In this document: positions 3,152-64,000 of the stretch, in pieces | Position numbering within the stretch: the stretch's first letter is position 1 | How the letters are laid out: the number at the start of each line of letters is the position of its first letter | Source of the DNA: Candidatus Dojkabacteria bacterium | GTDB lineage: Bacteria; Patescibacteriota; Dojkabacteria; B142; JAFGMG01 | Assembly (NCBI GenBank): GCA_016927655.1 | Contig: JAFGMG010000012.1 | Location: forward strand, 42,618 to 106,617 | Reading direction: 5' to 3' | DNA: 64,000 bases | Notes under the pieces: model-generated | The model's input: only the letters and a program-made list of their open reading frames with translations | Database searches by the model: none | What the model was told of the DNA's origin: nothing | Program-made: the position numbers and the translations under genes

Positions 3152-4090
3152 CTAAAATCTGTGCAAATCATAGCTGCGCCCCTCTCCCTCAAACCAGGTT
3201 ATCTGCCTTTTGGCGTACTGTTTATGAGCCAGCGCGATCTTCTCAATCAATTCACCCTTAGATTTTATTACGCCATCAATATACTCAATTGTTTGTCTAT
3301 AACCAGTTGCCTGCATTGATTTGAGATCCTTGGCAAAGCCTTTTGCCAAAAGGGCCTCTACTTCCTCTATCAATCCTTCATTAACCATCTCCTCAGCCCG
3401 TTTTTCTATTTTTCTTATCAACTCTTCCTGTTTGTAGTTCGGATAATAAAACTCTACCTCATAGGTATCTATTATTCCCATGCTCGATTTTCCAATTAGC
3501 CTTTTATCATACTGTTTCTCAATTTTTCGAATCAACCTCCTTGGATTTTTCTGATCGGATTCATTAAGTTTATCTAAATCAAAACCAGTGTTTTCAAGCT
3601 CCTGCTGGAGTCTTTTTAGATCCAATACCTCAAGTTTTCTTCTAAGTTCTGGATTAGGTGCTGCTTTCATTTCGTACCCTTTAATCAATCCATCTATATA
3701 CAAACCGCTGCCACCAACGATTATTGGTGTTTTTTTACGTTTTATAATATTTTTAATAACTGCGATTGCGAGGATTTGGAAATGTGCAACGGTGAAATTG
3801 AAATCTGGAGGGACAATGTCAAACATCCAGCCTATGACCCCGGATCCCTCTATTTCAAAAGGGCAGATTTCAAAATTCCTTTCTAGTGCCTCGACTTTTA
3901 TCGGGCTTTCTAATGAAGATCGCTTCATCTTTTCTTTATTCGTGCCAATATCCATTCCCTCATAAACCTGCATCGAATCAGCATTAACGATTTCACCATC
4001 AACCTCACGGGCGAGTTCAATCGCCTTCGAGGTTTTGCCCGATGCTGTCGGGCCGCCGATTATGTAAATCTTATTTGGGAGCTTTATCAT
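3152..4090 (-). CDS. miaA: tRNA dimethylallyltransferase
   Basis: N-terminal P-loop IYIIGGPTASGKTSKAIELAR...VNADSMQVY is typical of MiaA; 312 aa. Confidence 0.88.
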   Translation of the reverse strand: MIKLPNKIYIIGGPTASGKTSKAIELAREVDGEIVNADSMQVYEGMDIGTNKEKMKRSSLESPIKVEALERNFEICPFEIEGSGVIGWMFDIVPPDFNFTVAHFQILAIAVIKNIIKRKKTPIIVGGSGLYIDGLIKGYEMKAAPNPELRRKLEVLDLKRLQQELENTGFDLDKLNESDQKNPRRLIRKIEKQYDKRLIGKSSMGIIDTYEVEFYYPNYKQEELIRKIEKRAEEMVNEGLIEEVEALLAKGFAKDLKSMQATGYRQTIEYIDGVIKSKGELIEKIALAHKQYAKRQITWFEGEGRSYDLHRF

Positions 4091-4979
4091 CCAAGAGATC
4101 CATTATAATTTTCGTCCAGTAAGCATATGAATATACTTGATATGGACTATTAACTGTTCCAGCGAGAATTAAAATACCTATAAGAGCAGCGACTAAGAAT
4201 ACCACACCGATTACTGAATTTACCAGCAGCATTCCGATCCCTAAAATCGTCAATATAATAGCTGGCACTCCCACTGCCATCAATGCAATGATCGCCCAGG
4301 CACAGCCTGGCACAATAGAGACAACTGCAGCAAGAATGATATTTAATACCCTTTCTTTCATCAGCTTAAATCCAGCCTTTATACTCTCCATAGCTCCGGC
4401 ATTATTTAGCACAAGATATCTATGCGCAATTGTATAGGTAATCGCCCAGCCGATAAAATAAATAATATAGAATGGCACCAGACAGCAAAGCAGAATAAAT
4501 ACTGGAGGAAATATTATTCCTCCGATAACTAGAACTATCAATGGCAAAAATACTAAAAAATTTATCGCAAAGCCCGTAAGATCAAGCATCATAATATCAA
4601 GAGCGTGTGACTGGCCATCCCTCCAGCTAGATTTTAGACTCAAATCCTGTGAGTTTCTGTCTTTTTTGACAGCCTCGGTTAGAGCGCCCTTTGACACACT
4701 AAGTAAATACCAGCCAATCAGGGAGACAACAAATACAACACATAATCCAGCAATCAAGATAACCCAAAATAATGGGCTGAGAACAAAATCCTCCACATCA
4801 GACGCAAATTCGTCCATTTTTGCAGTATCTTCCGAACCGCTTGGGAAACTATAATTAGGACTCCCGCCGGAACCCCCGCCTCCGCCAAAGACTGTCAGAA
4901 TAAATCCAAAAACCCAGAGGAATTTGTATTTCCATGCAAATTCTATAGATTCTTTAATTTTATCGACATAATAATTCAT
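4071..4979 (-). CDS. Multi-pass membrane protein with Gly/Ser-rich segment (hypothetical)
   Basis: 302-aa ORF containing GGGGGSGGSPNY and several hydrophobic helices. It overlaps the miaA start by 20 nt. Confidence 0.5.
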   Translation of the reverse strand: MNYYVDKIKESIEFAWKYKFLWVFGFILTVFGGGGGSGGSPNYSFPSGSEDTAKMDEFASDVEDFVLSPLFWVILIAGLCVVFVVSLIGWYLLSVSKGALTEAVKKDRNSQDLSLKSSWRDGQSHALDIMMLDLTGFAINFLVFLPLIVLVIGGIIFPPVFILLCCLVPFYIIYFIGWAITYTIAHRYLVLNNAGAMESIKAGFKLMKERVLNIILAAVVSIVPGCAWAIIALMAVGVPAIILTILGIGMLLVNSVIGVVFLVAALIGILILAGTVNSPYQVYSYAYWTKIIMDLLDDKAPK

Positions 4980-7077: not shown

Positions 7078-7647
7078 TCATTGATCTTTCATCAACGCAT
7101 AGAAGTCTTCATATCCCATTTGAATTGCAGTGTATGCCATATCTACGAGACTCCAAATGTTATGTGGAATAAGTAAACCATCATTAACTTTTTCTCCAGC
7201 ATATTCTGATAGTACAGTTTTTACTGGCATCCATTCAAATCCGATAATTTCAGAGCTGGGAGTGACAGAGAAACTTAATTCCTCGTCTAACCAGATAATT
7301 CCAGCATAATCCATACAGGGTTTACCGTCCTTTTGCCATGCACTTCCCACAACGAATTTTAAGTTATCATCATATGCTATAGGATTTGTTACACCTTCCT
7401 CCCTTAACTCCCTATCAAAAGCAGCGTACCACAATTCTTCAAGAGTTGGTTTGTCACCAAATGCTGCTTCTAAAGAGTCAAAGTCGCATGTTTCAATGGC
7501 TCCACCTGGAAGTAACAAATAACCTTTATGGTGTTTGAGCATTAAAACCTCTGGATCTTTTGGATTTCTTAATAAGATTACCTTCGCGCCTTTTCGGAAA
7601 GTTTCGACATCTTCTCTTTCAAGATTTCCACCAGAGAGAATAGACAT
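7078..7647 (-). CDS. NUDIX-like hydrolase (Nudix box with an insertion)
   Basis: LPGGAIE...AAFDRELREEGV resembles the GX5EX7REUXEEXGU Nudix motif. Confidence 0.45.
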   Translation of the reverse strand: MSILSGGNLEREDVETFRKGAKVILLRNPKDPEVLMLKHHKGYLLLPGGAIETCDFDSLEAAFGDKPTLEELWYAAFDRELREEGVTNPIAYDDNLKFVVGSAWQKDGKPCMDYAGIIWLDEELSFSVTPSSEIIGFEWMPVKTVLSEYAGEKVNDGLLIPHNIWSLVDMAYTAIQMGYEDFYALMKDQ

Positions 7648-9039: not shown

Positions 9040-9589
9040 ATGCTAATTTTAATTTATTTCTAATCCGGTGCAGCCTGGTGCCAATATTTGTTTCTGAAAG
9101 TCCAACTAGTTTCGCAATTGATTTATTGTCCATTCCTTCGAAATATTTATAATAAATCAGGTATTGATCCTGGTCTTTAAATTCTCTTATTGCATTATAC
9201 AAGTGAATGTAGTCTTCGTCATCGATAAGCATTTGCAGAGTACTTTCACTTTGCGCCTCAATAAATTCAGAAATATCTTCTAAGGAAACCGAACCTTTGT
9301 ATTTATTGCTTTTACGATAATGATCTATCACTGTATTTCTTGCTACCCGGAATATCCATGCACTCATCGAAATACCCTGCCATTGGAAGTCATCAATCGA
9401 CTTCATAATTTTCTCAAAAATCTGGCTTGTCAGATCTTCAGCAATATGCTGATCACTCACTCTGCGAAGTACGAAATCGTAAACTCTTTCATGATAACTC
9501 TCATAAACTAATGTGAAATCTTTCTTGTTAAGCTTTTCCTTATCAGCAAGCTTTTTCTGTTCTTGTGGGTTATCAATTAGATTGTTCAA
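9011..9589 (-). CDS. ECF-type sigma-70 family RNA polymerase sigma factor
   Basis: Region-2-like YDFVLRRVSDQHIAEDLTSQIF and region-4 HTH LVGLSETNIGTRLHRIRNKL. 192 aa. Confidence 0.75.
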   Translation of the reverse strand: MNNLIDNPQEQKKLADKEKLNKKDFTLVYESYHERVYDFVLRRVSDQHIAEDLTSQIFEKIMKSIDDFQWQGISMSAWIFRVARNTVIDHYRKSNKYKGSVSLEDISEFIEAQSESTLQMLIDDEDYIHLYNAIREFKDQDQYLIYYKYFEGMDNKSIAKLVGLSETNIGTRLHRIRNKLKLAFGNDKTDKK

Positions 9590-11713: not shown

Positions 11714-12739
11714 CTAGGCTAAATTTATATCTTTTATAATTCGAATAATATTCTGCTGTTCTTCTGACAATCTTTTGAAAATATAGTCTCTGGCAAAATT
11801 TTCTATACCCCAGACTCTAACCAATCCGCCCTCTTCCGGCAAGATAAATCTTTCTATGCGTTTCATCATCCTTTCAAACTCTATTGTTGATTGACCTGGA
11901 CCCTTTATTCTATGCCCCCAGCCTTCAAGCTGGGCTTCTGTTATTTCAACCTTGTATCCGTAGTAATCTGCTAGTTTTTTGTTTTTTGCGCAGGATATGC
12001 CATGAAATCTTGACCGCCAGATATCATCGTACCAGGAAATAAACGGCGACTGCTGATTGAAAGGAGTTTTGTAATAATAGTTTATCCCAAAAGTGAATTT
12101 GTGAATTCTTTCCACATATTTTTGTGCAACTTCGAGGCATTTTTTTATATTTGTACAGCCAGAAGAACTAAGAAGAATTTCCTTCCCAGGAAAAAATTCC
12201 CATATCGTCTCAATCATCTTCTGTATATATTCTTCGCTCATTGTCCATTTTTTCAAACCAAATGCATTGAAAGCTTCATTTTCAGGCTGAATCATCACTA
12301 TATGTCCCAGCTCCTCAGCCGAATACCTGGATTGAAGTTTATTGAGAAGCTCTTCAGAAAAATGAATTGCAACAGCTGCCATATCATCCTCAAGATCAAT
12401 TTCTGTATTATTTGGGGGAATTTTTTCAAGTTTTTTCAATACAACTGCCGGAACATGGCTTTCAGGCCAGCGGAAAGTTTTAATTGGTCCGATATTTAAG
12501 GTTAATTTAATATCAGTATTCAGACAATAGTCCAAGAATGGTTTATAATAATGAAGATCGACTGTTCCATTTTTATCCACCGCCTGATTCCATCTAATTC
12601 CAAGTCGGATATCTTTAATCTCAAATTCTTCACGGACAACCTTCAAAGCTTCTAGGGATTGAAAATAGCTCAAACCTTTAGACTCGAGTTCTTCAGGAGA
12701 GAAACTTGTACCAATTTTTACTCTATTTGTTTTTGTCAT
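11714..12739 (-). CDS. Clan GH-A (GH5-like) TIM-barrel glycoside hydrolase-like protein
   Basis: IRWNQ, IQPENEA (acid/base NE) and EITEAQ (nucleophile TE) motifs. No signal peptide. Embedded in the dcw cluster. Confidence 0.4.
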   Translation of the reverse strand: MTKTNRVKIGTSFSPEELESKGLSYFQSLEALKVVREEFEIKDIRLGIRWNQAVDKNGTVDLHYYKPFLDYCLNTDIKLTLNIGPIKTFRWPESHVPAVVLKKLEKIPPNNTEIDLEDDMAAVAIHFSEELLNKLQSRYSAEELGHIVMIQPENEAFNAFGLKKWTMSEEYIQKMIETIWEFFPGKEILLSSSGCTNIKKCLEVAQKYVERIHKFTFGINYYYKTPFNQQSPFISWYDDIWRSRFHGISCAKNKKLADYYGYKVEITEAQLEGWGHRIKGPGQSTIEFERMMKRIERFILPEEGGLVRVWGIENFARDYIFKRLSEEQQNIIRIIKDINLA

Positions 12740-52690: not shown

Positions 52691-54996
52691 TCTTCAAACG
52701 TCTGATCAAACTGCCTGTCTTCCTGACCGATGAATTTCGGAATTGTAGCTGTAAATGTCGAGCCTTTACCAATTTCACTCTTCACATCAATTTTTCCATT
52801 CATAAGTTTCATCAGGTTAAAAGCAACATAAAGTCCAAGACCTGTTCCTCCAGGCCTTACCACACCATTTCCATCCGCACCCTTTGAAGTTGGAATATGC
52901 TGTTTTGCTCTAAAAAACTTCTTGCCAAGGTATTTCATATCTTCTTTAGCTATTCCAATTCCTTCATCTGTAACAGTAAATAGCACGTTCTTGTCGTTCT
53001 CCGTAATTTCAACTGTGACCTCGCCTTCTAAAGTATATTTGATTGCATTACTGACAAGATTATCTATTACTTCCTGGAATCTTGTTTTGTCTGCATAAAT
53101 CAAAGTTTCCTTCTTTGGTTTGGTGTAGACAATTTTGACATCTTTTTCTTTTGCAAAGTGCTCGTGTGCTTCTATTGCATTCTCAACTACCTGATTGGCA
53201 TCAAGCTGAGTAAGAAGCAGCTGGATTCTATTTGATTCGACTTTAGTTGCAGAAAGCAGAGTCTCTACAAGGTCAAGCTCTCTTTTTGCTCCCTCTGAGG
53301 CTTTTTCAATATAATTTGCAAGCTCACTTTCTGTAATTTTTTCTTTCTTTTTAATCTTTGATTGCAGAATCATCAGGGAATTTCTGACTATTGTAATTGG
53401 TGTTCGAAGCTCGTGACCCATGACATCGATCATATCTCTTTCCTGCCTGCGGACTTCTTCGAGCTTATCTAAAGTATCTTCAAGATCTTTATTTTTCTGT
53501 GAAATTTCTTCTGTTGCCTCATCGATACGCTTTTGAAGATTTTTATTGAGATCTTCGACTTCGAGGTAATAAAGTGAACGTGTAATTGCAAGGCCTAGTG
53601 TTGTGGCTATCCCATCGAGATATCCAACATCCTGATTTGTATATGGGCTGTCGGCTTCTTTTTCACCGATTAGCAGCATTGCGAAATTTTCTTCACTTTG
53701 CTTAAGAGGCATAATAATTTTGAGTTTGCTGCTAGCCATGCTTTTCATCACAGCTTCAATTTCGCTTTCAAGTCCCCGGAAATGCCTCGGTATTTCGAGT
53801 TCAAGTTCGTCGTAAACAATTGGGAATTTGCCTGCTTTATCCCATATGGCTTTGAGTTTTTCGAGACTTTCCATTTTAACTTCTTTTTTGTCCCCAAGTT
53901 CTTGTAGGTATTTTTTCTCTGCTGACTTCTCGAAGTCCTCGCCAGGAATAACAAGCACTGCCTGGTATTTAGCGCGTATTGTTCTACTGAGAGTTTCTAG
54001 AGTTGACTGTGAAATATCTCTAATACTCAAGTGTGTAGCGATTTTTCTTGAAAGCTGGTCTGTTTCTTCAAGCGGATCGTAGCCTGGATTGATGATTCTG
54101 GTACGAACCTGCTTTCGCAGGAAATTATTCAACCAAACAAACACCATTGCAAAGATAATCGCATTTGGAATACCAGATAAAACACCCCCCGTTGTCTCAC
54201 TCCCGCCAAAAGAAATAATATCAAAGAAGTAGATGGTGAAATAAGTCAGATAAAACAAAGAGCCAATAAGGGCATAGTAAACAATGCGGCCGACGAGGAT
54301 ACGAACGTCGAGGAATTGATAGCGTAAAATTGCATAAGTCACAGATAAGGTGAAGAATGTTGTACCAAGGGGTCCATAATGTTGAAGTAAAAAATTGCCG
54401 AAAAGATAAGGTAGAAATAGATTTGTGGAGATAGCAAAAATACTTGAGAGAACTATTCCTATTGTTATTATCGTAATTTGTCGTTTAGAAATTTTTTCAC
54501 TTCTTCTTCTCTTGATTAATAAAATTATTACACTAACTAGCATGGAACCTGCAAAATGGAGAATAAATAGAGGATATAAAATGCCATATATTGTATTATA
54601 CTCACCGTTTAAATATTCTTCTTTCTCATCAATGTATGGAGAAAATATAGTTATGTACACTAAGAATAACGTTAGTGCCGTGTATACAATCTTTATGAAA
54701 TGCTTCTTAATCAGACTATTCCCTTCTGGAAATTCGTTCGTAAAAAAGAGAACAAAATACCCTAAACTGGTTGTAGCTACAAAGTTTATCCTACCCCAAA
54801 ATAGAAATGCTGCTTCGCTTCTATATAAACTTAAATATAGTTCCAATGAAAATATCCAGCCAACAAGTGAACAGACCAGAAAGAAGAATAATTGATTAAG
54901 TCTTTTCCCGGGTTTATAACCTAAAATCAATAATCCTAAAATACTATTCAGTGAAATACTGATTATTGTTATCAACTCGGTTAACTGCATATTCAA
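52687..54996 (-). CDS. Polytopic membrane sensor histidine kinase
   Basis: About 9 TM helices. H-box GHELRTPITIV and HATPase N/G boxes (NLVSNAIKYT, DEGIGI, GTGLGLYVA). Confidence 0.8.
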   Translation of the reverse strand: MNMQLTELITIISISLNSILGLLILGYKPGKRLNQLFFFLVCSLVGWIFSLELYLSLYRSEAAFLFWGRINFVATTSLGYFVLFFTNEFPEGNSLIKKHFIKIVYTALTLFLVYITIFSPYIDEKEEYLNGEYNTIYGILYPLFILHFAGSMLVSVIILLIKRRRSEKISKRQITIITIGIVLSSIFAISTNLFLPYLFGNFLLQHYGPLGTTFFTLSVTYAILRYQFLDVRILVGRIVYYALIGSLFYLTYFTIYFFDIISFGGSETTGGVLSGIPNAIIFAMVFVWLNNFLRKQVRTRIINPGYDPLEETDQLSRKIATHLSIRDISQSTLETLSRTIRAKYQAVLVIPGEDFEKSAEKKYLQELGDKKEVKMESLEKLKAIWDKAGKFPIVYDELELEIPRHFRGLESEIEAVMKSMASSKLKIIMPLKQSEENFAMLLIGEKEADSPYTNQDVGYLDGIATTLGLAITRSLYYLEVEDLNKNLQKRIDEATEEISQKNKDLEDTLDKLEEVRRQERDMIDVMGHELRTPITIVRNSLMILQSKIKKKEKITESELANYIEKASEGAKRELDLVETLLSATKVESNRIQLLLTQLDANQVVENAIEAHEHFAKEKDVKIVYTKPKKETLIYADKTRFQEVIDNLVSNAIKYTLEGEVTVEITENDKNVLFTVTDEGIGIAKEDMKYLGKKFFRAKQHIPTSKGADGNGVVRPGGTGLGLYVAFNLMKLMNGKIDVKSEIGKGSTFTATIPKFIGQEDRQFDQTFED

Positions 54997-55034
54997 CTTG
55001 CTATTAACTATTACTTATAAACAATATAGCAGAT

Positions 55035-55829
55035 CTAGCTTAAATTTAAAATCAAGCATTTTACGCCCCCACCCGTTTTTATGTATTCACTTACGTCTAG
55101 TTTGTGTACTATGAACCCTGCCTTGATTATATCCTCCTCCAACTTTTCTGAAATTCGCGAACTTATAAATACATTTTTTCCATCCGAAAATATATTACAT
55201 CCAAAATTTAACGCATCATCATAGGATACTTCAATGACATGTTTTACATTTCCAAGTATCCAATCATAATCACTATTTTTGAATCCGAGAGGACAAACCA
55301 GAGATACTTCTGGACTTATCATAGAAAAACAGACATCAAGATGATAAAAATATGGATCAATGAGTTCAACAAGTTTTACCTTTTTAATTTTAAGATGTTT
55401 TATAATGTCTTCATATGCCTCTTTATCTGCACGTATTCCATAACTTGCGAGAAGCCAATCTCCCACAATTACAGAACAGGCCTCTCCCTCCCAAACCATA
55501 TTTTTAGGTAAATTTACTACTTCAAACCCATTAGAAGTAAACCATTTCATGAAGTATTTCTTTTCGCTCTGCCTTTCCTCGTCTCTGAAACTACTTAATA
55601 TAACTTTTTCCCCAACAACCATTCCAGCATTTGCAGCAAAAACCATATCTGGAAGATGCTCTTCCGAATTACATACCGACACCTTAACATTGGCGGTCTC
55701 TAATTCATTTCTGACTTTATTCCATTGCCTTTTTGCTAAATCCTTATTGATACTCTGATTAAGATTCATCCAAGGATTAATCGAATATTTCAGATCGTAA
55801 TTTTTTGGATCAACAAGTAATATTTTCAT
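55035..55829 (-). CDS. Amidinotransferase-superfamily protein (DDAH/arginine-deiminase-like fold)
   Basis: HLD motif (YHLDVCF) and C-terminal catalytic-Cys motif GGGVKC. Confidence 0.5.
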   Translation of the reverse strand: MKILLVDPKNYDLKYSINPWMNLNQSINKDLAKRQWNKVRNELETANVKVSVCNSEEHLPDMVFAANAGMVVGEKVILSSFRDEERQSEKKYFMKWFTSNGFEVVNLPKNMVWEGEACSVIVGDWLLASYGIRADKEAYEDIIKHLKIKKVKLVELIDPYFYHLDVCFSMISPEVSLVCPLGFKNSDYDWILGNVKHVIEVSYDDALNFGCNIFSDGKNVFISSRISEKLEEDIIKAGFIVHKLDVSEYIKTGGGVKCLILNLS

Positions 55830-57157
55830 CCTACAGTGAGTAATTCCGCCTCAAGGCTGTTTGCGTATTCTTTGGCTTTTTCAATTCTATCGGAAGCAAT
55901 ATAATTATCTACCCTCAAATCAAGTACTCTTAAAGTTTCCGCAACTTTTGATGCATTCATAAGATCCTGAGAAAAAACGACATAATCAAAGTCATTGTTA
56001 TACAATGTATTTAGGATATTACGGTTTCCAAGCAAAGAGTTTGTCTTCAATATTTTCATAATTCTTTCAAGACTAAAAGCAAATCCTGTGGCAAAAAGTA
56101 TTGGTTTCACAAGCGACTTTCCCATTATCTTGTTTACAAAATAATCATACCTTCCACCCCCAGCAATCTCGGATACAATTCCTTTTCCAATATGGACATC
56201 TGCTTGGAATGTTAATTTATTATAATACTCCTGACTTCTTGTAACAGATGTATCAATAACGACCTTCATTCCTAAATTTTCAAAGTATTTTGTTAACAAG
56301 TAAAGGTCGGCAAGTGCTTCTTGAGGGAAGCCTTTTAGTTTATTTTTAATATCTTCACTACTCAGATATCCATTGTATAATATTTTCCACTTCTTAATTA
56401 ATCGAGAACTAATATTAATCTCATGGAGATACTTATCTATCCTGGCTAATTCAGTACTTAGTAACTTTTTTTTATTCTGGGCCCTAAAGGAAGCAATATT
56501 ATCTAAATGGTTTTTTACAGCATTCTGCTTGTTAACATTAAGCTTCGATTTTTCCGCTAGGAAACGGAATAATCTTACGTCATTTACCCGCACAATAATG
56601 CTTTCTGATTCGAGTCCTATTTTGACAAGACTGTTTATCAGTAGCTGAATAATCTCAATATCCGCCTTTATACTTCCGATTCCCAAATATTCCGCTCCAA
56701 TCTGTACGAATTCTCTTAATTTAGTATCTGACAATGTAGAAACCAGTTCATTTCTGAAACAATTTGACGTATAAAATAATTTCACTGGTTTTCCATTTTT
56801 AAATCTACTGTCACATGCTTCTATTTTTGAACTTACCCACCTGCAAAGAGATGTTGTTCCTTCTGGAATTAAAAAATATTTCCCCTCCATACTATCCACA
56901 TCTTCGTAAGCCTTATTATAATCTCGAGCAGTAACAGCAAATAAGCTTTTAGGATGGAAGTTGGGCCAAGGATGTGTCCCGACATATTCACTAGAAAAAA
57001 ATTTCTGATGTTCCAAGGTAGGAATTTTTAATTTATCAAACCCGCACTTGTAAAAGTAATTACTTATACTTGATAAAACAAAGTCTTGTGCATATGAATC
57101 TTCGTAGCAGTATTCATTAAATCCTGCTGGAGAAGAAAACCTTGAATTTTGTCTCAT
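55826..57157 (-). CDS. hisS: Histidyl-tRNA synthetase
   Basis: Class II motif 2 (NCFRNE...REFVQIGAEYLG) and motif 3 (AGGGRYD...GFAFSLERI). Confidence 0.78.
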   Translation of the reverse strand: MRQNSRFSSPAGFNEYCYEDSYAQDFVLSSISNYFYKCGFDKLKIPTLEHQKFFSSEYVGTHPWPNFHPKSLFAVTARDYNKAYEDVDSMEGKYFLIPEGTTSLCRWVSSKIEACDSRFKNGKPVKLFYTSNCFRNELVSTLSDTKLREFVQIGAEYLGIGSIKADIEIIQLLINSLVKIGLESESIIVRVNDVRLFRFLAEKSKLNVNKQNAVKNHLDNIASFRAQNKKKLLSTELARIDKYLHEINISSRLIKKWKILYNGYLSSEDIKNKLKGFPQEALADLYLLTKYFENLGMKVVIDTSVTRSQEYYNKLTFQADVHIGKGIVSEIAGGGRYDYFVNKIMGKSLVKPILFATGFAFSLERIMKILKTNSLLGNRNILNTLYNNDFDYVVFSQDLMNASKVAETLRVLDLRVDNYIASDRIEKAKEYANSLEAELLTVG

Positions 57158-57173
57158 ATGTTAGTAGTAAAAA

Positions 57174-58220
57174 TTATTGTTTCACTAAATATTTCAATCT
57201 CAATGCTTTTAATGCTAATAGTAATCTATTCGGAGATTCTGCAAAACCTAACAGATCCCCGACTCTAATAGAGAATATATATCTGTCCTGTCTCTCGACA
57301 GTGGGTACTGGGTATCTTTTCATCTTGAGATTTTCGGCAAACTTCATCACCGGCAATTTTCTTTTTGGTAGATATGGCACATAAATACCTGGATGTATTC
57401 CTTTCCGATCAAGCTGATATGTATCATGTTTATTAAACATCTCAGCCAACTCTTCTTTCTCAAGATCCGTACCTGTGATACCCTCTCTAGTCAATAACCG
57501 TCTCTCCTCTTCGCTTAAAGGCTTATGCCCTTTTGTTGTGAGTAAAATATGAGTATCTGCATTAACTCTTCTGACCTGTGTCACCGCTCTTAACAAATCT
57601 CTTGTGAGAGTACGGAAAGGCTCAAGACCACTACGATAATCAGAAGCAATGAATAATTCGCTCCAATACACCGATAGCTCAGGTAATTGAAAAAACAAAT
57701 CCTTCCTAAATTCCTCTGGAGTTATTTCTATAGTTTGTTCTAGGAATTTCTTAAGGTCATCATATAACTTCTCATTATCGAGAGTTTTAAGTATCCCTAA
57801 ACCAATTGGTTGCCCCTCTGAATTCCAAATAATCGAAATCACATCCTCAGCTTTTAGGAGTGCTATTTCATCTAGTAACATACTGGCATTTGTATCTTCT
57901 TCTAACCATTCCTCTTGAAATACTCTTGAATAAGTATGTCCCAAATCATTCAAGGCCGCATTTGTTCTACTATATTCATCACCAACATAAGGAGCTATCT
58001 GGTCACCCCTATGCGTCGATATAAATAACTTATGGCCTGCCTCATTCTCTGCTGTTGATATAGAGACCATTCCCACTTCAGAAAGAGCTGGGATTAGAGC
58101 AATAGCATCGCGAGGATCCTTTTCCCCGTACAAATCTTGAAATACCCATGAACTTGTGTCCATGGGACCTAAATTAGGGATTGTAACTATCTCACCCATC
58201 CTAATCATCTTATATATCAC
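57174..58220 (-). CDS. Hypothetical protein
   Basis: 348 aa with no recognised motif. Likely in an operon with hisS. Confidence 0.5.
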   Translation of the reverse strand: MIYKMIRMGEIVTIPNLGPMDTSSWVFQDLYGEKDPRDAIALIPALSEVGMVSISTAENEAGHKLFISTHRGDQIAPYVGDEYSRTNAALNDLGHTYSRVFQEEWLEEDTNASMLLDEIALLKAEDVISIIWNSEGQPIGLGILKTLDNEKLYDDLKKFLEQTIEITPEEFRKDLFFQLPELSVYWSELFIASDYRSGLEPFRTLTRDLLRAVTQVRRVNADTHILLTTKGHKPLSEEERRLLTREGITGTDLEKEELAEMFNKHDTYQLDRKGIHPGIYVPYLPKRKLPVMKFAENLKMKRYPVPTVERQDRYIFSIRVGDLLGFAESPNRLLLALKALRLKYLVKQ

Positions 58221-58267
58221 AAATCATTATATATTATACCAAAAACATATCCTATAGTATAGCCCAA

Positions 58268-59056
58268 TCAGCTGATCAACCTCCTGACAACCTGTAAGAA
58301 TTTACTATTTGGTATATATTCTATTGACTCAAAACGCGGATAATTCCATAAAGGTTCTCTATAAAGACTCATCTTTATATTAAAACACTCAACCCTCAAT
58401 CCTATTTCTCTTGATTCAAGAGAATTAAAATTATATTGGTTGTTATCTACCTCATCCCATATATTCTTAATATCTGGATATTTCTCAACTACTTTCTCAT
58501 TCCTCCTATACCAAGTATCATCTCGCATAAATTCCATTTGTTTTTTAACTCTGCCAAGTTGATAGTAAAGCATTTCCATATATTTATCTGTTTGAAGATA
58601 TTTCTTGATCATATAGCTATCATCTACTAGCAAAGCCACAACTGAATCCCCTAGAATTTTCGAAACTGTCTCACGATACTTGTCTCCTAATAGCCTTTTA
58701 AAAATTTTCTCAAAACCTTTCGAAAAATACAGCATCCTGAACCTATCATCAAGCATATATGCATATACATTATTATTTGTATAATGATTTCTTAAAACTT
58801 CGATTGCTTTTTGTACTTCATCGTCTGACGCAGGTTCTGCTATCGTTCCAATAAGATAGTCAACTTCCCTGTCATTTAATAATAATATCTTACCAATATA
58901 TAAGACAGTCTCCTTACTCGGATTGACCTTGCCGCTCTCTATTCTCGAAATCATGCCTACAGAAGCGTTCATGGCCAGCTCGAGGTCCATCTGGCTCATT
59001 CCAGCTCTTTTTCTGAAGTATTTAATTCTTCGGCCCAATGTCTTTGCGTCAATCAT
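58268..59056 (-). CDS. XRE-family HTH regulator with ~200-aa C-terminal domain (Rgg/RNPP-like architecture), copy 2
   Basis: N-terminus MIDAKTLGRRIKYFRKRAGMSQMDLELAMNASVGMISRIESGKVNPS. Confidence 0.6.
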   Translation of the reverse strand: MIDAKTLGRRIKYFRKRAGMSQMDLELAMNASVGMISRIESGKVNPSKETVLYIGKILLLNDREVDYLIGTIAEPASDDEVQKAIEVLRNHYTNNNVYAYMLDDRFRMLYFSKGFEKIFKRLLGDKYRETVSKILGDSVVALLVDDSYMIKKYLQTDKYMEMLYYQLGRVKKQMEFMRDDTWYRRNEKVVEKYPDIKNIWDEVDNNQYNFNSLESREIGLRVECFNIKMSLYREPLWNYPRFESIEYIPNSKFLQVVRRLIS

Positions 59057-59838
59057 TTCCTGCCCTTTAAAAGGTTTTGAACCGTTCTGAAATATTTATT
59101 CACGGGAATATATTCAACAATTTCGAATCTTGGATTATCAAGCAGTCTCTCCCTGGCATACATCATTTTAAATTTCACTGGCCCGACTTTAAATGGAACA
59201 ATTCTCTCATCTTTCTCGTAAAACACTCCCAATTTTTCAGTATCCAGACTATTCCAGTACTCAAATATCTTCGGATGTTTCTCTATTTCTTCTATACTGA
59301 CCTGATATATCTTATCATCCTTCATAAAACTAATCTCTCTTTTACAATAGGCAAGCTGAATGCGAACCATTTCGTCATAAGCACTTTCATCGAACAATCC
59401 CTTTACACCAAGACGTTCATCTAGAAGAATCTGAATAATAGTTTTGCCAAATACTCCATCAATGGTTTTTTGATCAGCATTCAATATTTTTTGGAATCCT
59501 TTTGATACATGAAGGATTCTCCATCTTTCGTCAGTTAGATAACCAAATACAGAGCTTTTATCGAGATAGTATTTGAGCTGCTGATAAACTTCTTCGATCT
59601 CTTCTTTAGTTGAAGGGACAGCTGTTACACCGATTAAATAGTCTAATTCGTTGGGATTCATATTCAGTATCTCTGCAACTTTTCTCACGCTCTCCTTGCT
59701 CGGATTGACCTTGCCGCTCTCTATTCTCGAAATCATGCCTGCGGAGGCATTCATTGCCAGCTCGAGTTCCATCTGGCTCATTCCAGCTCTTTTTCTGAAG
59801 TATTTAATTCTTCTGCCCAATGTCTTTGCGTCAATCAT
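59053..59838 (-). CDS. XRE-family HTH regulator, tandem paralog (copy 1), translationally coupled (ATGA) to copy 2
   Basis: The N-terminal 50 aa are near-identical to copy 2. The stop overlaps the downstream start. Confidence 0.6.
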   Translation of the reverse strand: MIDAKTLGRRIKYFRKRAGMSQMELELAMNASAGMISRIESGKVNPSKESVRKVAEILNMNPNELDYLIGVTAVPSTKEEIEEVYQQLKYYLDKSSVFGYLTDERWRILHVSKGFQKILNADQKTIDGVFGKTIIQILLDERLGVKGLFDESAYDEMVRIQLAYCKREISFMKDDKIYQVSIEEIEKHPKIFEYWNSLDTEKLGVFYEKDERIVPFKVGPVKFKMMYARERLLDNPRFEIVEYIPVNKYFRTVQNLLKGRK

Positions 59839-59960
59839 GCCCCTGGGATTAACTATTCGATTATATCATTAACATTATATATACACAATTAGTATATAAC
59901 TGTTTGTAATTTTTCCATTCTTGTTCTAGTATGGGCGCTTCTGTTTATTAAAATAATATT

Positions 59961-60347
59961 ATGGACGATCAGAACTTACAAGAAGCAATGGACGAGCAGG
60001 GCCTGGATGAAGAAAACACCAACCGTATCGAAGAGTATTTTAAGACCAAAGATGCAATCAGAACATTTAGAAATGATCTGAAAGAGCTCAAAGAAACCCA
60101 TGAAGACGCAGAGAACCTGAAGAACCTGTCAGAAGAAGTGAAAAATCTCAGGAAAAAAATCAACGACACAGAAGACATTCGAATAATCAGCGACAAAATC
60201 TCAGGGTTAAAAGAAAGGATGGATCTTCTCAAAGATATTATCTACGCTGAACTCAAAGAGACAGACGAGAAAGAAGTTAAAATGAACGGTCGGAAACTGA
60301 AAATTATAGAGGTGCTGAAAGAAATGAAGGACGAGGAGAGCGAGTAG
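59961..60347 (+). CDS. Acidic coiled-coil protein (hypothetical)
   Basis: E/K-rich heptad-like sequence. 128 aa. Confidence 0.45.
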   Translation: MDDQNLQEAMDEQGLDEENTNRIEEYFKTKDAIRTFRNDLKELKETHEDAENLKNLSEEVKNLRKKINDTEDIRIISDKISGLKERMDLLKDIIYAELKETDEKEVKMNGRKLKIIEVLKEMKDEESE

Positions 60348-60542
60348 CAAATTTTTTGCCAAATTCAAACAATTTCCATCTATTTTCATGGGATTTCCAT
60401 GATTCTTCCATAGTTCTGCAATCTTTTCCTGCTAACTTATTTCTGCAATAAATTTTCCATAATTTGTATTGCAATACAATGCGGAGGTTTAAAAAGAGTG
60501 CTATAAACACTCAGATTATTTTTTATTTATTAGTTTCTTGCG

Positions 60543-61154
60543 ATGTCAAAGTTCAAACTCAGTCTAATTTTGGCAAGTGGGATATTGTCTGCGGTCTTCA
60601 TTTTTCAAGGATTAAATTCTCCGGCTGAAGCTCAAACCTCAAATTGGGGTGCTTGTACAAATGGGGTTTGTTACACTGGCGGGAGAGTTGGGATTGGAAC
60701 ACTTTCTCCAGGAAGCGGTCTTGATGTGAGCGGGAACTTTCAGACAAGGACTGCCTACGGCGGGGCAAGTTTTGTAGTCGCCCCGAATTCCGGGAGTTCT
60801 CAGAAATATGGAATGACGAATCTTGATACTGGTACTTTATTCTTTGGCAGGACTACCGGAGCTGGCGGCGGGGTTTCTCCTGATCTGAGTCTTTTCTCTG
60901 GCAATGTGGGTGTAAACAAGGCTTATCCGGGGACGAATTTGGATGTAAACGGATTTGTTCGTTCGAATCCGTTAAATAACGGAGGCGCAACTTATGTAGT
61001 AACTCCAAGTAATGGTACTGCTCAAAGTTATGGTATGACTGCTGCTGACGATGGGACGTACTTTTTCGGTAGGACAAATGGGCCAAGCCAGGGGATATTG
61101 GCGAGCATAAAAGTGTACAGCAACGGCGGCATGTGCCTTGGCAAGTGCTGGTAA
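60543..61154 (+). CDS. Secreted protein with two ~38-aa Gly-rich internal repeats
   Basis: Signal/TM, then GGASFVVAPNSGSSQKYGMTNLDTGTLFFGRTTGAGGG and GGATYVVTPSNGTAQSYGMTAADDGTYFFGRTNGPSQG. Confidence 0.5.
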   Translation: MSKFKLSLILASGILSAVFIFQGLNSPAEAQTSNWGACTNGVCYTGGRVGIGTLSPGSGLDVSGNFQTRTAYGGASFVVAPNSGSSQKYGMTNLDTGTLFFGRTTGAGGGVSPDLSLFSGNVGVNKAYPGTNLDVNGFVRSNPLNNGGATYVVTPSNGTAQSYGMTAADDGTYFFGRTNGPSQGILASIKVYSNGGMCLGKCW

Positions 61155-61197
61155 AAGAAACGGGAAGTTTATTCTTTATTTATGTTAGGTTAGAAAG

Positions 61198-62682
61198 ATG
61201 AAAAAGAAACTAATATTATTAATACTAGGCATACCCGTCATTGTTATCGGTGGATTTGTCTTTAAAAGCATAGTTTTGGCAAAAGGGGATGATACAATCA
61301 TAATAAAAGAGAACTTAGTAGCAGACGGTGAATTTGTCCGTGGTCCAAATGTGGAAAATTTTGGAGTTGAGAAATACATCAATAAAAAACTAAAAAAATA
61401 CTCTTCTTTCCAAAAGGAAATTGATGATCAGTCTGAAATGTATAGTATCAACCCTGAGTTATTGATAACACTAATAGACATTCAATATCAAAATGTGGAC
61501 TTAACAGATATGAAGCCTGAAGAGTTTAACGATTTGATCGAAAAATTGGTGATTGATCTTACGGATAACTACTATGGCTGCATTGCCCAAGCAGTAGAAA
61601 GAGCAGATAATAAACTAGAGAAAGAATATGAATCCCCTTTTGGATACAGAGTCAAACTAGACGATGAAGTAAATGCAGCCACTAATGCAACAATATTTGC
61701 AATGATTCAAAGAATGGATAAACAGGATATGAAAAATTTTGCAAGGAACGGAGATAACGGAGATTTTCATAAACACTTTTCAAAACTATTTCCAGAATCG
61801 GATCCACTAGATGGAAGTAATGTGATTGACTATGAAATAGTAAGTGGGAAAAAGAAACCTGAGAAATTTTCTTTATCAAACAGCATTGTTCAGAAGGCTC
61901 AAGCCCAATCAACTCCATTTAAAGAAACCCTGCAATTTCCTTATCCAATAGGGCAGTCTTGGGTATTTAATGGCGTACATTCTACTAATATGTCCGGAAT
62001 AGACTTTTCTCCAACAAATCCTTTTCCAAGCTGGCTTCAACCAGAAAATGATATCACAGCAACTGATTATCGGGTTGTTGCAGCCGCAGATGGTATAGCA
62101 CAAAAATATTCTAATTGCCTTGTTTATATTGATCACGGTGGAGGGTGGAAGACTAAATATTACCATCTCGAAAATGTACAATTCAGTCAAAACACCTCTG
62201 TTGAAGCAAATGATACGATTGCATACTTGGCTAACACCTACTCTGAAGCTATTTGCAATACCGGAGATGCTACTGGTAGACATGTTCATTTTGGATTGAT
62301 GTATAATGGAGCTTATACTGCTCTTGATGGATCGGAATTTTCCGGATGGAAGGTAAACGTAAATACGACAACACCTTATTCTATCGATTGCACAAAAATG
62401 TATCTTTATAGAGACGGAGTAACCAAGTGTCCACGCAGTAGTATTTTAAATGACGCATCGACAGATTCATGTATTCCTTCTCCAGGACTCGATTGGGTTA
62501 TTGACGGACAGGTATGTGAGATTACTTCCAATATGGTGGCTGATAGAAATGTGTTGGTGAAGAATAACTCTGAATTAAGACTTTTAGCTAATTCTAGTCT
62601 TAACATTGATTTCCTGAACTATTCTATACAAACAGAACCCTATGGTAAAATAACCATAGATTCGACTGCTAAGCTATTTTAA
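61198..62682 (+). CDS. Membrane-anchored secreted M23-family (LytM-like) metallopeptidase
   Basis: YIDHGGGWKTKYYHL (HxxxD region) and GDATGRHVHFGL (HxH) motifs. Confidence 0.68.
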   Translation: MKKKLILLILGIPVIVIGGFVFKSIVLAKGDDTIIIKENLVADGEFVRGPNVENFGVEKYINKKLKKYSSFQKEIDDQSEMYSINPELLITLIDIQYQNVDLTDMKPEEFNDLIEKLVIDLTDNYYGCIAQAVERADNKLEKEYESPFGYRVKLDDEVNAATNATIFAMIQRMDKQDMKNFARNGDNGDFHKHFSKLFPESDPLDGSNVIDYEIVSGKKKPEKFSLSNSIVQKAQAQSTPFKETLQFPYPIGQSWVFNGVHSTNMSGIDFSPTNPFPSWLQPENDITATDYRVVAAADGIAQKYSNCLVYIDHGGGWKTKYYHLENVQFSQNTSVEANDTIAYLANTYSEAICNTGDATGRHVHFGLMYNGAYTALDGSEFSGWKVNVNTTTPYSIDCTKMYLYRDGVTKCPRSSILNDASTDSCIPSPGLDWVIDGQVCEITSNMVADRNVLVKNNSELRLLANSSLNIDFLNYSIQTEPYGKITIDSTAKLF

Positions 62683-62720
62683 CTTACAAAAACTATGAAA
62701 AAAACACTAATAATTCTTTT
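62569..62720 (+). repeat. About 150-bp direct repeat, copy 1 (gene 3' end + intergenic + signal-peptide codons)
   Basis: Matches 63340..63490. Confidence 0.6.
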
Positions 62721-63324
62721 AATAATCGGCCTAGTTGTTTTTACAGCTATTATTGGAATAGTAGGTTATTTGTTAATCACTAAAAAATCAGAACCTGCCA
62801 TTTCAACTCAACGAGAGGCAAACAATAACACCACTTCCGATAATATTGCTAATAATACTGAGCCAACTGATAATCAGACGACTCAAACATTCCTTACATA
62901 TACAATCCCGAAATATTCCAGTTATCCAGAGGTAGGGCTTACTTACCCAGAATCATGGATAATGGAAAAGACTGTGACTGCAGGTCAACCAGAGTATTCA
63001 TTCACAAAAAATGGATATGAATTGATGATAAGGCGTGTAGAAGGCGGTGGAGTTGAATGTCATTTCGATAGCAATTTCCCTGCAGAAATGGCTGATTTCA
63101 ACCTAGATATCAGTCAATATGACTACAAGAAGATCTCTTCTAATTTAGGAGATTTTTACTACTTCGATACAGGAAGCAAATATGAGTTTTGTGGTCCATC
63201 TTCACAGGTTACTGGGAAACTAGTTGAGATGAATATGCTTGGTTTGATCACTTTTGAGACTCCTGCAAACCCTAGTTCTGAGATCATGGACGAAATGGTC
63301 GCTATTATAGAAAGTGCCCAATAG
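62695..63324 (+). CDS. Membrane-anchored secreted protein, paralog family A
   Basis: Shares GYEL.IRR..G.G.ECH..SNF..EM.DFN.DI..YDY with the next gene. Confidence 0.5.
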   Translation: MKKTLIILLIIGLVVFTAIIGIVGYLLITKKSEPAISTQREANNNTTSDNIANNTEPTDNQTTQTFLTYTIPKYSSYPEVGLTYPESWIMEKTVTAGQPEYSFTKNGYELMIRRVEGGGVECHFDSNFPAEMADFNLDISQYDYKKISSNLGDFYYFDTGSKYEFCGPSSQVTGKLVEMNMLGLITFETPANPSSEIMDEMVAIIESAQ

Positions 63325-63338
63325 AACCAGCAAATAAC

Positions 63339-63452
63339 GCAGAACTGAGATTACTTGCAAATTCGAGTCTGGACATTGATTTCTTGAACTATTCAGTTCA
63401 AGTAGAACCCTATGGTAAGATAACCATAGATTCAACTTCTAAATTATTTTAA
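63339..63452 (+). pseudogene. Duplicated C-terminal fragment of the M23 peptidase gene (AELRLLANSSLDIDFLNYSVQVEPYGKITIDSTSKLF*)
   Basis: About 88% DNA identity to 62569..62682, the 3' end of the 61198..62682 gene. Confidence 0.5.
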
Positions 63453-63490
63453 TTTGCAATAATTATGAAAAAAACATTAATAACTCTAAT
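63340..63490 (+). repeat. About 150-bp direct repeat, copy 2
   Basis: Matches 62569..62720. Confidence 0.6.
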
Positions 63491-64000
63491 AGTATTCGAG
63501 CTGGTTGTCCTAATGGTAATAACTGGGATTATAGTTTGTTTAACCCTAAGAAATTATACTAACGGAAAGTCTGAGACTATAATTACAACCCCAGATGGAA
63601 ATGCCGGCGAGTCAGAAGAAGGTTTTCCTGACAATATCGTTGATGCACAAACATCAGAAGAACCCTCTACATACATAGTGAAAGCATTTGGGAATTTCTC
63701 TGGTTTTTCATTTGATTATCCTTCAAATTGGACAGTTGAAAAAGACGAAAAAGGAAATATATATCAAAATCTAACACTAACAAAAATAGGAGGTTATGAA
63801 TTAAGTATACGGCGCGCAAGTGGAGACGGACAAGAGTGTCATCTCAACAGTAATTTTTCCCAAGAAATGACAGACTTTAATATTGACATTACCAAATATG
63901 ATTATAACTTCGTCGAGTCAAAACTAGGAAGAGTGTATTACTTTGCAAAGGACAAAAATAACGCGTACGAATATTGCATTCCAGGCAAAGATAACCCTAA
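63465..64000 (+). CDS. Membrane-anchored secreted protein, paralog family A (runs off the right edge)
   Basis: Manual translation MKKTLITLIVFELVVLMVITGIIV...GYELSIRRASGDGQECHLNSNFSQEMTDFNIDITKYDY.... Confidence 0.5.
   Translation, partial: MKKTLITLIVFELVVLMVITGIIVCLTLRNYTNGKSETIITTPDGNAGESEEGFPDNIVDAQTSEEPSTYIVKAFGNFSGFSFDYPSNWTVEKDEKGNIYQNLTLTKIGGYELSIRRASGDGQECHLNSNFSQEMTDFNIDITKYDYNFVESKLGRVYYFAKDKNNAYEYCIPGKDNP

Follow-up and report, generated by a model that had tools for sequence, protein, structure and literature searches.

We analysed a stretch of 64,000 nucleotides (nt) from Candidatus Dojkabacteria bacterium (assembly GCA_016927655.1, contig JAFGMG010000012.1, positions 42,618 to 106,617 of the forward strand), referred to below as the window. 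Near its right end, an intact gene for an M23-family metallopeptidase is followed by two paralogous open reading frames (ORFs) for small proteins, ORF1 and ORF2, and between these two lies a 120-nt fragment that repeats the end of the peptidase gene. The origin of this fragment is the subject of this report. Coordinates are window positions; extended coordinates continue past 64000 along L001, a public Logan contig from the assembly of SRR13394437, which was identical to the window over 59784–64000 (4217/4217 nt) and extends 289 nt past the window end. At NCBI, the same small proteins carry the locus tags JW978_04165 and JW978_04170 and are assigned to a Candidatus Dojkabacteria bacterium; the contig there measures 120 kb. 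The features of the locus are as follows.

60543–61154 (+): gene for a protein of 203 amino acids (aa), signal-like at its N-terminus; its position upstream of the M23 gene is conserved
61198–62682 (+): M23-family metallopeptidase gene, 494 aa (PF01551, E = 4.2e-12)
62563–62771 (+): repeat copy 1, full extent, running from the M23 tail and its stop through the 12-nt spacer into ORF1, of which it takes in 77 nt; from repeat search and identity profile
62563–62682 (+): coding part of repeat copy 1, with which the M23 gene ends (39 codons and TAA), encoding NNSELRLLANSSLNIDFLNYSIQTEPYGKITIDSTAKLF
62695–63324 (+): ORF1, 209 aa, predicted membrane-anchored small protein of a PsbP/Mog1-like family, starting 12 nt after the M23 stop
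63325–63332 (+): junction AACCAGCA, 8 nt from the ORF1 stop to the start of the remnant, a putative deletion or duplication joint; homology to copy 1 starts at 63333
63333–63452 (+): repeat copy 2, probable remnant of a second M23 gene, 39 in-frame codons and TAA, encoding NNAELRLLANSSLDIDFLNYSVQVEPYGKITIDSTSKLF
63333–63541 (+): repeat copy 2, full extent, running from the remnant and its stop through the 12-nt spacer into ORF2, of which it takes in 77 nt
63465–64000 (+): ORF2, paralog of ORF1, cut by the window end; complete at 217 aa, ending at extended position 64118 (L001 3682–4335; JW978_04170)

A repeat search identified an ungapped direct repeat of 209 nt, 62563–62771 against 63333–63541, with 76% identity and an offset of 770. 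In a sliding comparison at this offset, identity was 70–90% over 62570–62720 and about 60% up to 62780, and it lay at background (17–37%) in the flanks on both sides. The local alignment score of the two copies was 68, compared with 10.5 ± 1.0 (maximum 15) in 200 shuffles. The first-pass annotation of this DNA had paired 62569–62720 with a segment starting at 63340, at about 88% identity. We confirmed that the repeat is real and exists in a single register, identity dropping to only 30% at offset 771; the partner segment, however, is 63339–63490, and identity over these 152 nt is 79.6%. Neither of the outcomes that would have spoken against the repeat, an identity below 70% or a shift in register, was observed. 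By part, it was 80.3% over the 117 nt of tail coding sequence, 3/3 in the stop codon, 8/12 in the spacer, and 85% and 70% over the first 26 and 77 nt of the small gene, respectively. The longest exact match between the copies was 15 nt.

At the protein level, 34 of the 39 tail residues (87%) are identical. Copy 2 has no internal stop or indel over its 39 codons, and the TAA at the equivalent position, the 12-nt spacer and the ATG of ORF2 are all kept. This anatomy, together with the identity between ORF1 and ORF2 (40% over 215 aa, E = 1e-45), bears out the earlier description of a stranded M23 tail fragment that lacks its 5′ part and precedes a paralogous small gene, in two tandem modules. No further paralogs or tail copies were detected elsewhere in the window by tblastn. 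Additional copies beyond the window edge, envisaged in the first-pass annotation, did not materialise: the 289 nt added by L001 contain the end of ORF2, whose stop lies 118 nt past the window end, no third tail, and then the 3′ part of a tRNA gene (L001 4454–4506, minus strand; extended 64237–64289; Rfam 32 bits, gathering score 29). ARAGORN missed this tRNA gene because it is cut by the contig end. The gene marks the end of the array, and its anticodon loop, inspected by eye, suggests a candidate Gln(CUG).

We examined the substitution pattern of the tails. According to the Nei–Gojobori method, copies 1 and 2 differ at 15 of 26 synonymous sites and 8 of 91 non-synonymous sites, corresponding to 1.1 synonymous (dS) and 0.094 non-synonymous (dN) substitutions per site and a dN/dS of ~0.085. 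Only one of the 23 differences falls at codon position 2 (P = 0.001). The outgroup came from L002 (Logan SRR28093593), the sole close relative found, which supplied an ortholog of the M23 protein (P0003) and one of ORF1 (P0005, hereafter Ob). Nucleotide identity of the tails was 81% between copies 1 and 2, 78% between copy 2 and the L002 ortholog, and 72% between copy 1 and that ortholog. With the L002 tail as outgroup, unique changes numbered 13 in copy 1 (9 synonymous), 5 in copy 2 (2 synonymous and 3 non-synonymous) and 15 in the ortholog. Had copy 2 been neutral since the split, it should carry ~78% of the changes unique to either copy; it carries 5 of 18 (P = 6e-6, or P = 3e-4 when all unresolved sites were assigned against the claim). 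Depending on the test, P values against stranding at birth ranged from 6e-6 to 3e-3.

As judged from these substitutions, the results show protein-level purifying selection on the remnant, which would have been translated for most of the time since its split from copy 1. Because of this signature and the short copy-2 branch, the remnant appears to have belonged to a functioning M23 gene over most of its existence and to have been stranded later. This bears directly on the simplest one-step origin, in which a 770-bp unit consisting of the M23 tail, spacer and small ORF was duplicated once, with its left breakpoint inside the M23 gene, so that the fragment was non-functional from the start. The exact 770-nt spacing, the common register and a unit boundary only 8 nt past the ORF1 stop all fit such an event. 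A neutral fragment, however, should hold most of the changes, spread evenly over codon positions, whereas this one holds the fewest (5 against 13 and 15), and neither the low dN/dS nor the near absence of position-2 differences agrees with neutrality since duplication. Nor is the model saved by invoking gene conversion from copy 1, as a dS of ~1.1 has accumulated since any such event. Moreover, whole M23 genes have duplicated and then decayed in another lineage (L009, described below). We therefore consider an origin from a 770-bp unit unlikely. Of the cassette duplication proposed in the first-pass annotation, the tandem duplication stands, but a 770-bp cassette that stranded the tail at birth does not, given the purifying selection on the tail and its short branch.

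Gene conversion was also rejected as the cause of the conserved 5′ block of the repeat. Between the paralogs, amino-acid identity is 87% for the tail and 40% for the small ORFs, and the orthologs show the same contrast (85% and 52%), which makes conversion unnecessary; it is also incompatible with a dS of ~1.1. The fragment is a worked case of a 120-nt sequence dated relative to its neighbours, in which stranding came late and the paralogs are old, and late stranding corrects the intuitive reading of a recent cassette duplication.

The split of ORF1 and ORF2 is old, because the proteins are only 40% identical, the synonymous sites of the tails are nearly saturated (dS ~1.1), and the distance of ORF2 from ORF1 is about that from homologs in other lineages. 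For the same reasons, the earlier statement that the locus is actively diversifying was not borne out. The complete ORF2 looks functional, judging from its family residues and predicted structure. The family is marked by an invariant W and two conserved C residues, all of which are kept in ORF2, and the AlphaFold model of ORF2 is confident (mean predicted local distance difference test score, pLDDT, 89). In the model, an N-terminal helix at residues 3–31 is connected by a disordered linker to a beta-rich domain that closes with a helix, and it is structurally similar to solved members of the Mog1/PsbP fold, to which ORF2 was assigned on this basis. The structure was modelled for ORF2 directly, and ORF1 was taken to be alike from its 40% identity. 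The small proteins had been described as secreted; with a modelled N-terminal helix followed by a linker, membrane anchoring fits better. At the profile level, ORF2 matched PsbP_2 (PF18933) with 28.7 bits against a cut-off of 27, ORF1 did not match, and 3 of 80 family members matched at E <= 0.01.

Next, we considered whether the remnant is expressed or kept for a function. The ends of ORF1 and its ortholog Ob are collinear (MDEMVAIIESAQ and MDEMVSIVESFQ, each directly followed by the stop); the two proteins are of equal length, end at the same position and are 52% identical. Relative to ORF1, the remnant reads in the −1 frame; an in-frame ATG, GTG or TTG is missing upstream of it, and no slippery site of the form X_XXY_YYZ was seen by eye in 63283–63324. 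Because the ORF1 end is ancestral, and given the −1 frame and the lack of a start codon and slippery site, the remnant is a fragment and not a frameshifted C-terminus of ORF1. These observations show that it is not translated as part of ORF1. The possibility that ORF1 is fused to the tail through a sequencing or programmed frameshift was rejected, as the ORF1 stop is collinear with the ortholog stop and there is no slippery site. A promoter inside the tail was likewise rejected, because neither copy contains a plus-strand sigma-70-like site and site counts were at the level of shuffled sequences.

At the RNA level, Rfam detected no known family in the repeat, giving nothing but the downstream tRNA. 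The remnant region 63333–63470 folded more stably than its shuffles (z = −3.57, 0/200), compared with z = −1.58 for copy 1. A perfect 8-bp hairpin, CTTGAACT-ATTC-AGTTCAAG, occupies 63383–63402 and is absent from copy 1, whereas a 7-bp hairpin, CTATGGT-N6-ACCATAG, occurs in both copies (63410–63429 and 62640–62659) and is kept in the L002 ortholog by G-U pairs. Such structure is compatible with retention of the remnant for a function, either as a cis element (a promoter, a 5′ untranslated region or RNA structure for ORF2, or a 3′ stabiliser of ORF1) or through translation by frameshifting or reinitiation. Also compatible with retention are the preserved stop and spacer length, the survival of M23 tails directly upstream of small ORFs both in the window and twice in L009, and a tail-like frame after an ORF1-like gene in L008. 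We nonetheless regard a retained function as improbable. The fragment has no start codon, slippery heptamer or plus-strand sigma-70-like promoter, and the ORF1 stop is ancestral. Constraint at the nucleotide level fails to explain why the functional copies changed more than the fragment at synonymous sites. The changes found in copy 2 alone (3 non-synonymous, 2 synonymous; 4 of the 5 at codon position 1) are those expected after constraint was lost. Finally, remnants beside essential boundaries are what repeated deletions leave anyway: deletions that spare the start of ORF2 leave residue next to it, so survival of the remnant needs no function.

To place the locus in context, we compared it with related loci. 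Close relatives were scarce: k-mer protein searches matched the organism itself and one relative only, scans of GTDB representative genomes for close relatives were empty, and a scan of Joint Genome Institute (JGI) metagenomes yielded one remote M23 only. A profile search with ORF1, ORF2 and Ob recovered 186 family members. The pairing of an M23 gene with a small ORF was present in five further lineages (L002, L006, L007, L009 and L011/L012), six with the window. L002 has a single module without a tail fragment or ORF2: its M23 gene is followed after 11 nt by the 209-aa ORF1 ortholog, a hairpin with a T-run that looks terminator-like by eye, and then an unrelated Fic gene. In L006 and L011/L012, an M23 gene without the tail precedes one small ORF. 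L007 carries a homolog of the 203-aa gene, an M23 gene with a divergent tail, and four ORFs for small membrane-anchored proteins; homology to ORF1 and ORF2 is recognisable in the second of these only. No tail fragments were found in L002, L006 or L007.

L009, a distant relative, was shown to carry intermediate stages of the same decay. Its order is a 191-aa gene, a small ORF, an M23 gene, a small ORF, and then two small ORFs, each preceded by a dead M23 gene. The first dead copy is frameshifted; pieces of its catalytic region, 'DWIID...EITS' segment and tail survive in collinear order (3309–3785). The second has an internal deletion that joined the N-terminal 105 codons (4552–4869, with N-terminal sequence also delimited at 4606–4800) to the C-terminal ~60 codons (4797–4979), and ahead of it, at 4474–4527, stands a sequence 93% identical to the 3′ end of the upstream 191-aa gene. 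In both dead copies the tail and its stop survive, immediately ahead of the small ORF, and the L009 tail pair shows a synonymous excess (proportions of differing synonymous and non-synonymous sites, pS 0.76 and pN 0.16). More widely, L009 400–7800 is a long array beside ftsZ, ftsA and a gene with a POTRA_1 domain (FtsQ-like), with several small Mog1/PsbP-like ORFs and a further M23 catalytic fragment at 7213–7590. On a 1-kb JGI contig, L008 (383–1028), an ORF1-like gene (52% identical) lacks the membrane-anchor region, and directly after its stop a tail-like frame, 'NSSLNINFVNY...', runs off the contig. This frame is ambiguous and may be another stranded tail with a different 5′ breakpoint. 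Taken together, these comparisons suggest that whole modules were duplicated or acquired, that small genes were kept and diverged while surplus M23 genes decayed, and that the window represents the end state.

We conclude that 63333–63452 is probably the remnant of a once-complete second M23 gene, the body of which was deleted later, between two old tandem modules, each pairing an M23 gene with a gene for a small membrane-anchored Mog1/PsbP-fold protein. Module 1 is intact (M23 gene, 61198–62682; ORF1, 62695–63324). Of module 2, the surviving part is the 39 codons, stop and 12-nt spacer (63333–63464), which begin 8 nt after the ORF1 stop and are followed by an intact ORF2. In this sequence of events, a whole module including a complete M23 gene would have arisen by duplication in situ or come in from a related lineage. 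The two M23 genes would then have worked for a long time while their small partners diverged to 40% identity, after which the redundant M23 body of ~1.37 kb would have been deleted. The right end of the deletion would have been unable to enter the region needed for ORF2 expression.

Several points weigh against this interpretation. No 5′ remnant of the second M23 gene is present in the window, and 8 nt separate ORF1 from the tail; because no 5′ part survives, we infer the former full-length gene and do not see it. The outgroup analysis covers 117 nt and three sequences, with one close relative (L002) in ~15 billion proteins searched. A strict clock does not account for the imbalance between 13 unique changes in copy 1 and 5 in copy 2 (Tajima-type test, P ~0.06). 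In addition, the data do not separate duplication in situ from acquisition of a module from another lineage.

Acquisition is a variant of the favoured explanation that differs only in the origin of the second M23 gene: one module would have recombined in from a related lineage, and the resident tail and partner would have been pushed downstream, in the manner of orphan toxin–immunity modules at polymorphic toxin loci. Several features are consistent with it. ORF2 is about equidistant (34–43%) from ORF1, Ob and the L006 and L008 copies, while ORF1, Ob and the L008 copy group closer; the copy-2 tail resembles the L002 ortholog (78%) as much as it does copy 1 (81%); the sister genome lacks ORF2; and a tRNA gene closes the locus, which lies in a lower-GC stretch that also contains tandem XRE regulators. 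There is, however, no known donor lineage, and no integrase or mobility gene adjoins the module among the ORFs at 55826–64000, the neighbourhood scanned for secretion, integrase and mobility genes. The same data also fit an old duplication in situ, with ORF2 lost in the L002 lineage and evolving faster. In a three-way comparison, ORF1 and ORF2 shared 26 residues against Ob, ORF2 and Ob shared 14 against ORF1, and 53 residues were unique to ORF2. This protein comparison mildly favours a split after speciation, with ORF2 having evolved several times faster. We consider acquisition rather unlikely.

An assembly artefact, in which two strain variants of one M23–small ORF locus were joined in tandem, was also considered, since this is a metagenome-assembled genome and repeats of 80% identity can confuse assemblers. 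The NCBI contig and the independent Logan assembly are, however, identical across the junction (the 4217 nt noted above). Furthermore, a chimeric join is expected within shared k-mers and would give a hybrid tail, not ORF1 followed by 8 nt and a tail; the longest exact match between the copies is 15 nt. We regard an artefact as highly improbable.

In general bacterial genome evolution, a gene may be duplicated in tandem, after which the redundant copy turns into a pseudogene and is trimmed by deletions. The present locus resembles this process in having two direct modules of the same orientation, one gene cut down to a 3′ fragment, and intermediates in L009. It differs in that the remnant is unusually well preserved, with no indel and the stop kept, and in that the partner gene has been retained and is highly diverged, so that only one of the two genes of the module is dispensable. 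As an outcome of duplication and decay the locus is ordinary, and it does not represent a cassette array in active expansion. An integron-type cassette was rejected: its boundary would be an attC site, a non-coding imperfect inverted repeat that an integrase recognises, whereas the sequence repeated here is coding, being the 3′ end of the M23 gene, with conservation at the protein level in the ortholog and codon-periodic substitutions; no integrase was found among the ORFs scanned (55826–64000).

The M23 protein is a predicted peptidase by family match. It scored 46.6 bits against Peptidase_M23 (PF01551; cut-off 28.7) over residues 286–373, and an identical 494-aa protein is named 'M23 family metallopeptidase [Candidatus Dojkabacteria bacterium]' at NCBI. 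NCBIfam gave weak matches to Pgp3, MepM and ShyA models, all under the cut-offs. The protein consists of an N-terminal membrane segment, a region of ~250 aa without family assignment, the M23 domain and the C-terminal tail. Regarding the zinc and catalytic motifs (HxxxD and HxH), HVH is present at residues 362–364; the Pfam match begins at profile position 16 and leaves the first motif unaligned. Residues 261–269 read HSTNMSGID and are followed by an insertion of ~17 residues, with the usual HxxxD unaligned. The L002 ortholog P0003 is 64–65% identical overall, with 33/39 (85%) of the tail and 100% of the last 14 residues. Upstream, the 203-aa protein had no Pfam or NCBIfam match; in L009 (38% over 173 aa, E = 1e-32), L007 and L002, a homolog immediately precedes the M23 gene.

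We then considered what the small proteins may do. Their genes lie 11–12 nt behind a peptidase gene, evolve fast, form arrays, and are retained while extra peptidase genes die; this suggests, less firmly than the conclusions above, that the proteins are extracytoplasmic partners or inhibitors of the peptidase. If so, this role, read from context and fold, would explain why small genes are kept while surplus peptidase genes decay. Two points weigh against it: gene order and fold are its basis, and the fold also serves unrelated functions (PsbP, Mog1, LpqN and DcrB); and the family members L010 and L013 are not M23-adjacent.

Known systems offer partial parallels. Periplasmic immunity proteins with the Mog1/PsbP fold (TplEi/Tli4, PA3488/Tli5, Tsi3 and Smlt3025) have this predicted fold in common with the small proteins. 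The likeness is by fold alone: sequence identity to these proteins and to PF18933 PsbP_2, DcrB and LpqN is 8–13%, the fold spans unrelated roles, and the anchor of the small proteins is an N-terminal membrane helix. Poole and colleagues, in 2011, reportedly described orphan toxin–immunity modules downstream of cdiA, rhs and other polymorphic toxin genes. As in those modules, known from contact-dependent inhibition (CDI) and Rhs systems, an intact gene and its small partner are followed by a 5′-truncated gene fragment and a distinct small partner, and the common segment could in principle support module-swapping recombination. In the orphan modules, however, the fragment is a different toxin domain after a conserved motif, whereas the remnant here comprises 39 aa, 87% identical, without a catalytic domain, and the variable part is the small gene only. 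A longest exact match of 15 nt is also a poor substrate for homologous recombination. No secretion-system genes came up among the genes examined (55826–64000). Compared with M23 (LytM/lysostaphin-type) endopeptidases that have regulatory partners, the M23 protein shares the PF01551 domain and a membrane anchor, and the L009 locus lies beside ftsZ, ftsA and the POTRA_1 gene; it differs in its long N-terminal region and its conserved beta-rich C-terminal tail, both without family assignment.

A bolder proposal is that the M23–Mog1/PsbP-fold modules of Dojkabacteria and related bacteria in the candidate phyla radiation (CPR) form an effector–immunity-like system of episymbionts. Diverged 'orphan' protectors would accumulate while surplus peptidases decay, and the conserved tail remnants ahead of each small gene would serve as expression signals or as recombination handles for swapping partners behind a single working peptidase. 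We put this forward only tentatively and think it rather unlikely. In the literature searched, we found no paper linking a Patescibacteria M23 peptidase to an immunity protein, and the gene pair is undescribed as far as our searches showed. The pair is conserved in CPR/Patescibacteria and consists of an M23 peptidase with a conserved tail and fast-evolving membrane-anchored Mog1/PsbP-fold proteins, the small genes persisting in arrays. Should the peptidase be regulated or neutralised by the small proteins, the pair would bear on the control of cell-wall hydrolysis in tiny episymbionts.

Some features upstream of the locus were also recorded. Two tandem paralogs for XRE-type helix-turn-helix (HTH) regulators, 262 and 261 aa long, lie at 58268–59056 (−) and 59053–59838 (−) with a 4-nt overlap. 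Their 5′ 250 nt are 78% identical, with nearly the same DNA-binding N-termini and diverged C-terminal parts; they form a second tandem pair, a short way upstream of the M23 locus. Upstream of the 203-aa gene, at 60464–60479, lies a perfect 16-bp palindrome, TTGTATTGCAATACAA. In L002, a copy identical over 25/25 nt occurs at 9286–9310 upstream of the homologous gene, and a looser one at 12355–12398 upstream of the Fic gene. The palindrome may be a candidate operator for the neighbouring HTH regulators. The GC content of 54001–60000 is 0.34–0.36, compared with a window average of ~0.39; this stretch spans a hisS-like gene, a 348-aa ORF without assignment and the two HTH regulators, and it may be a variable region.

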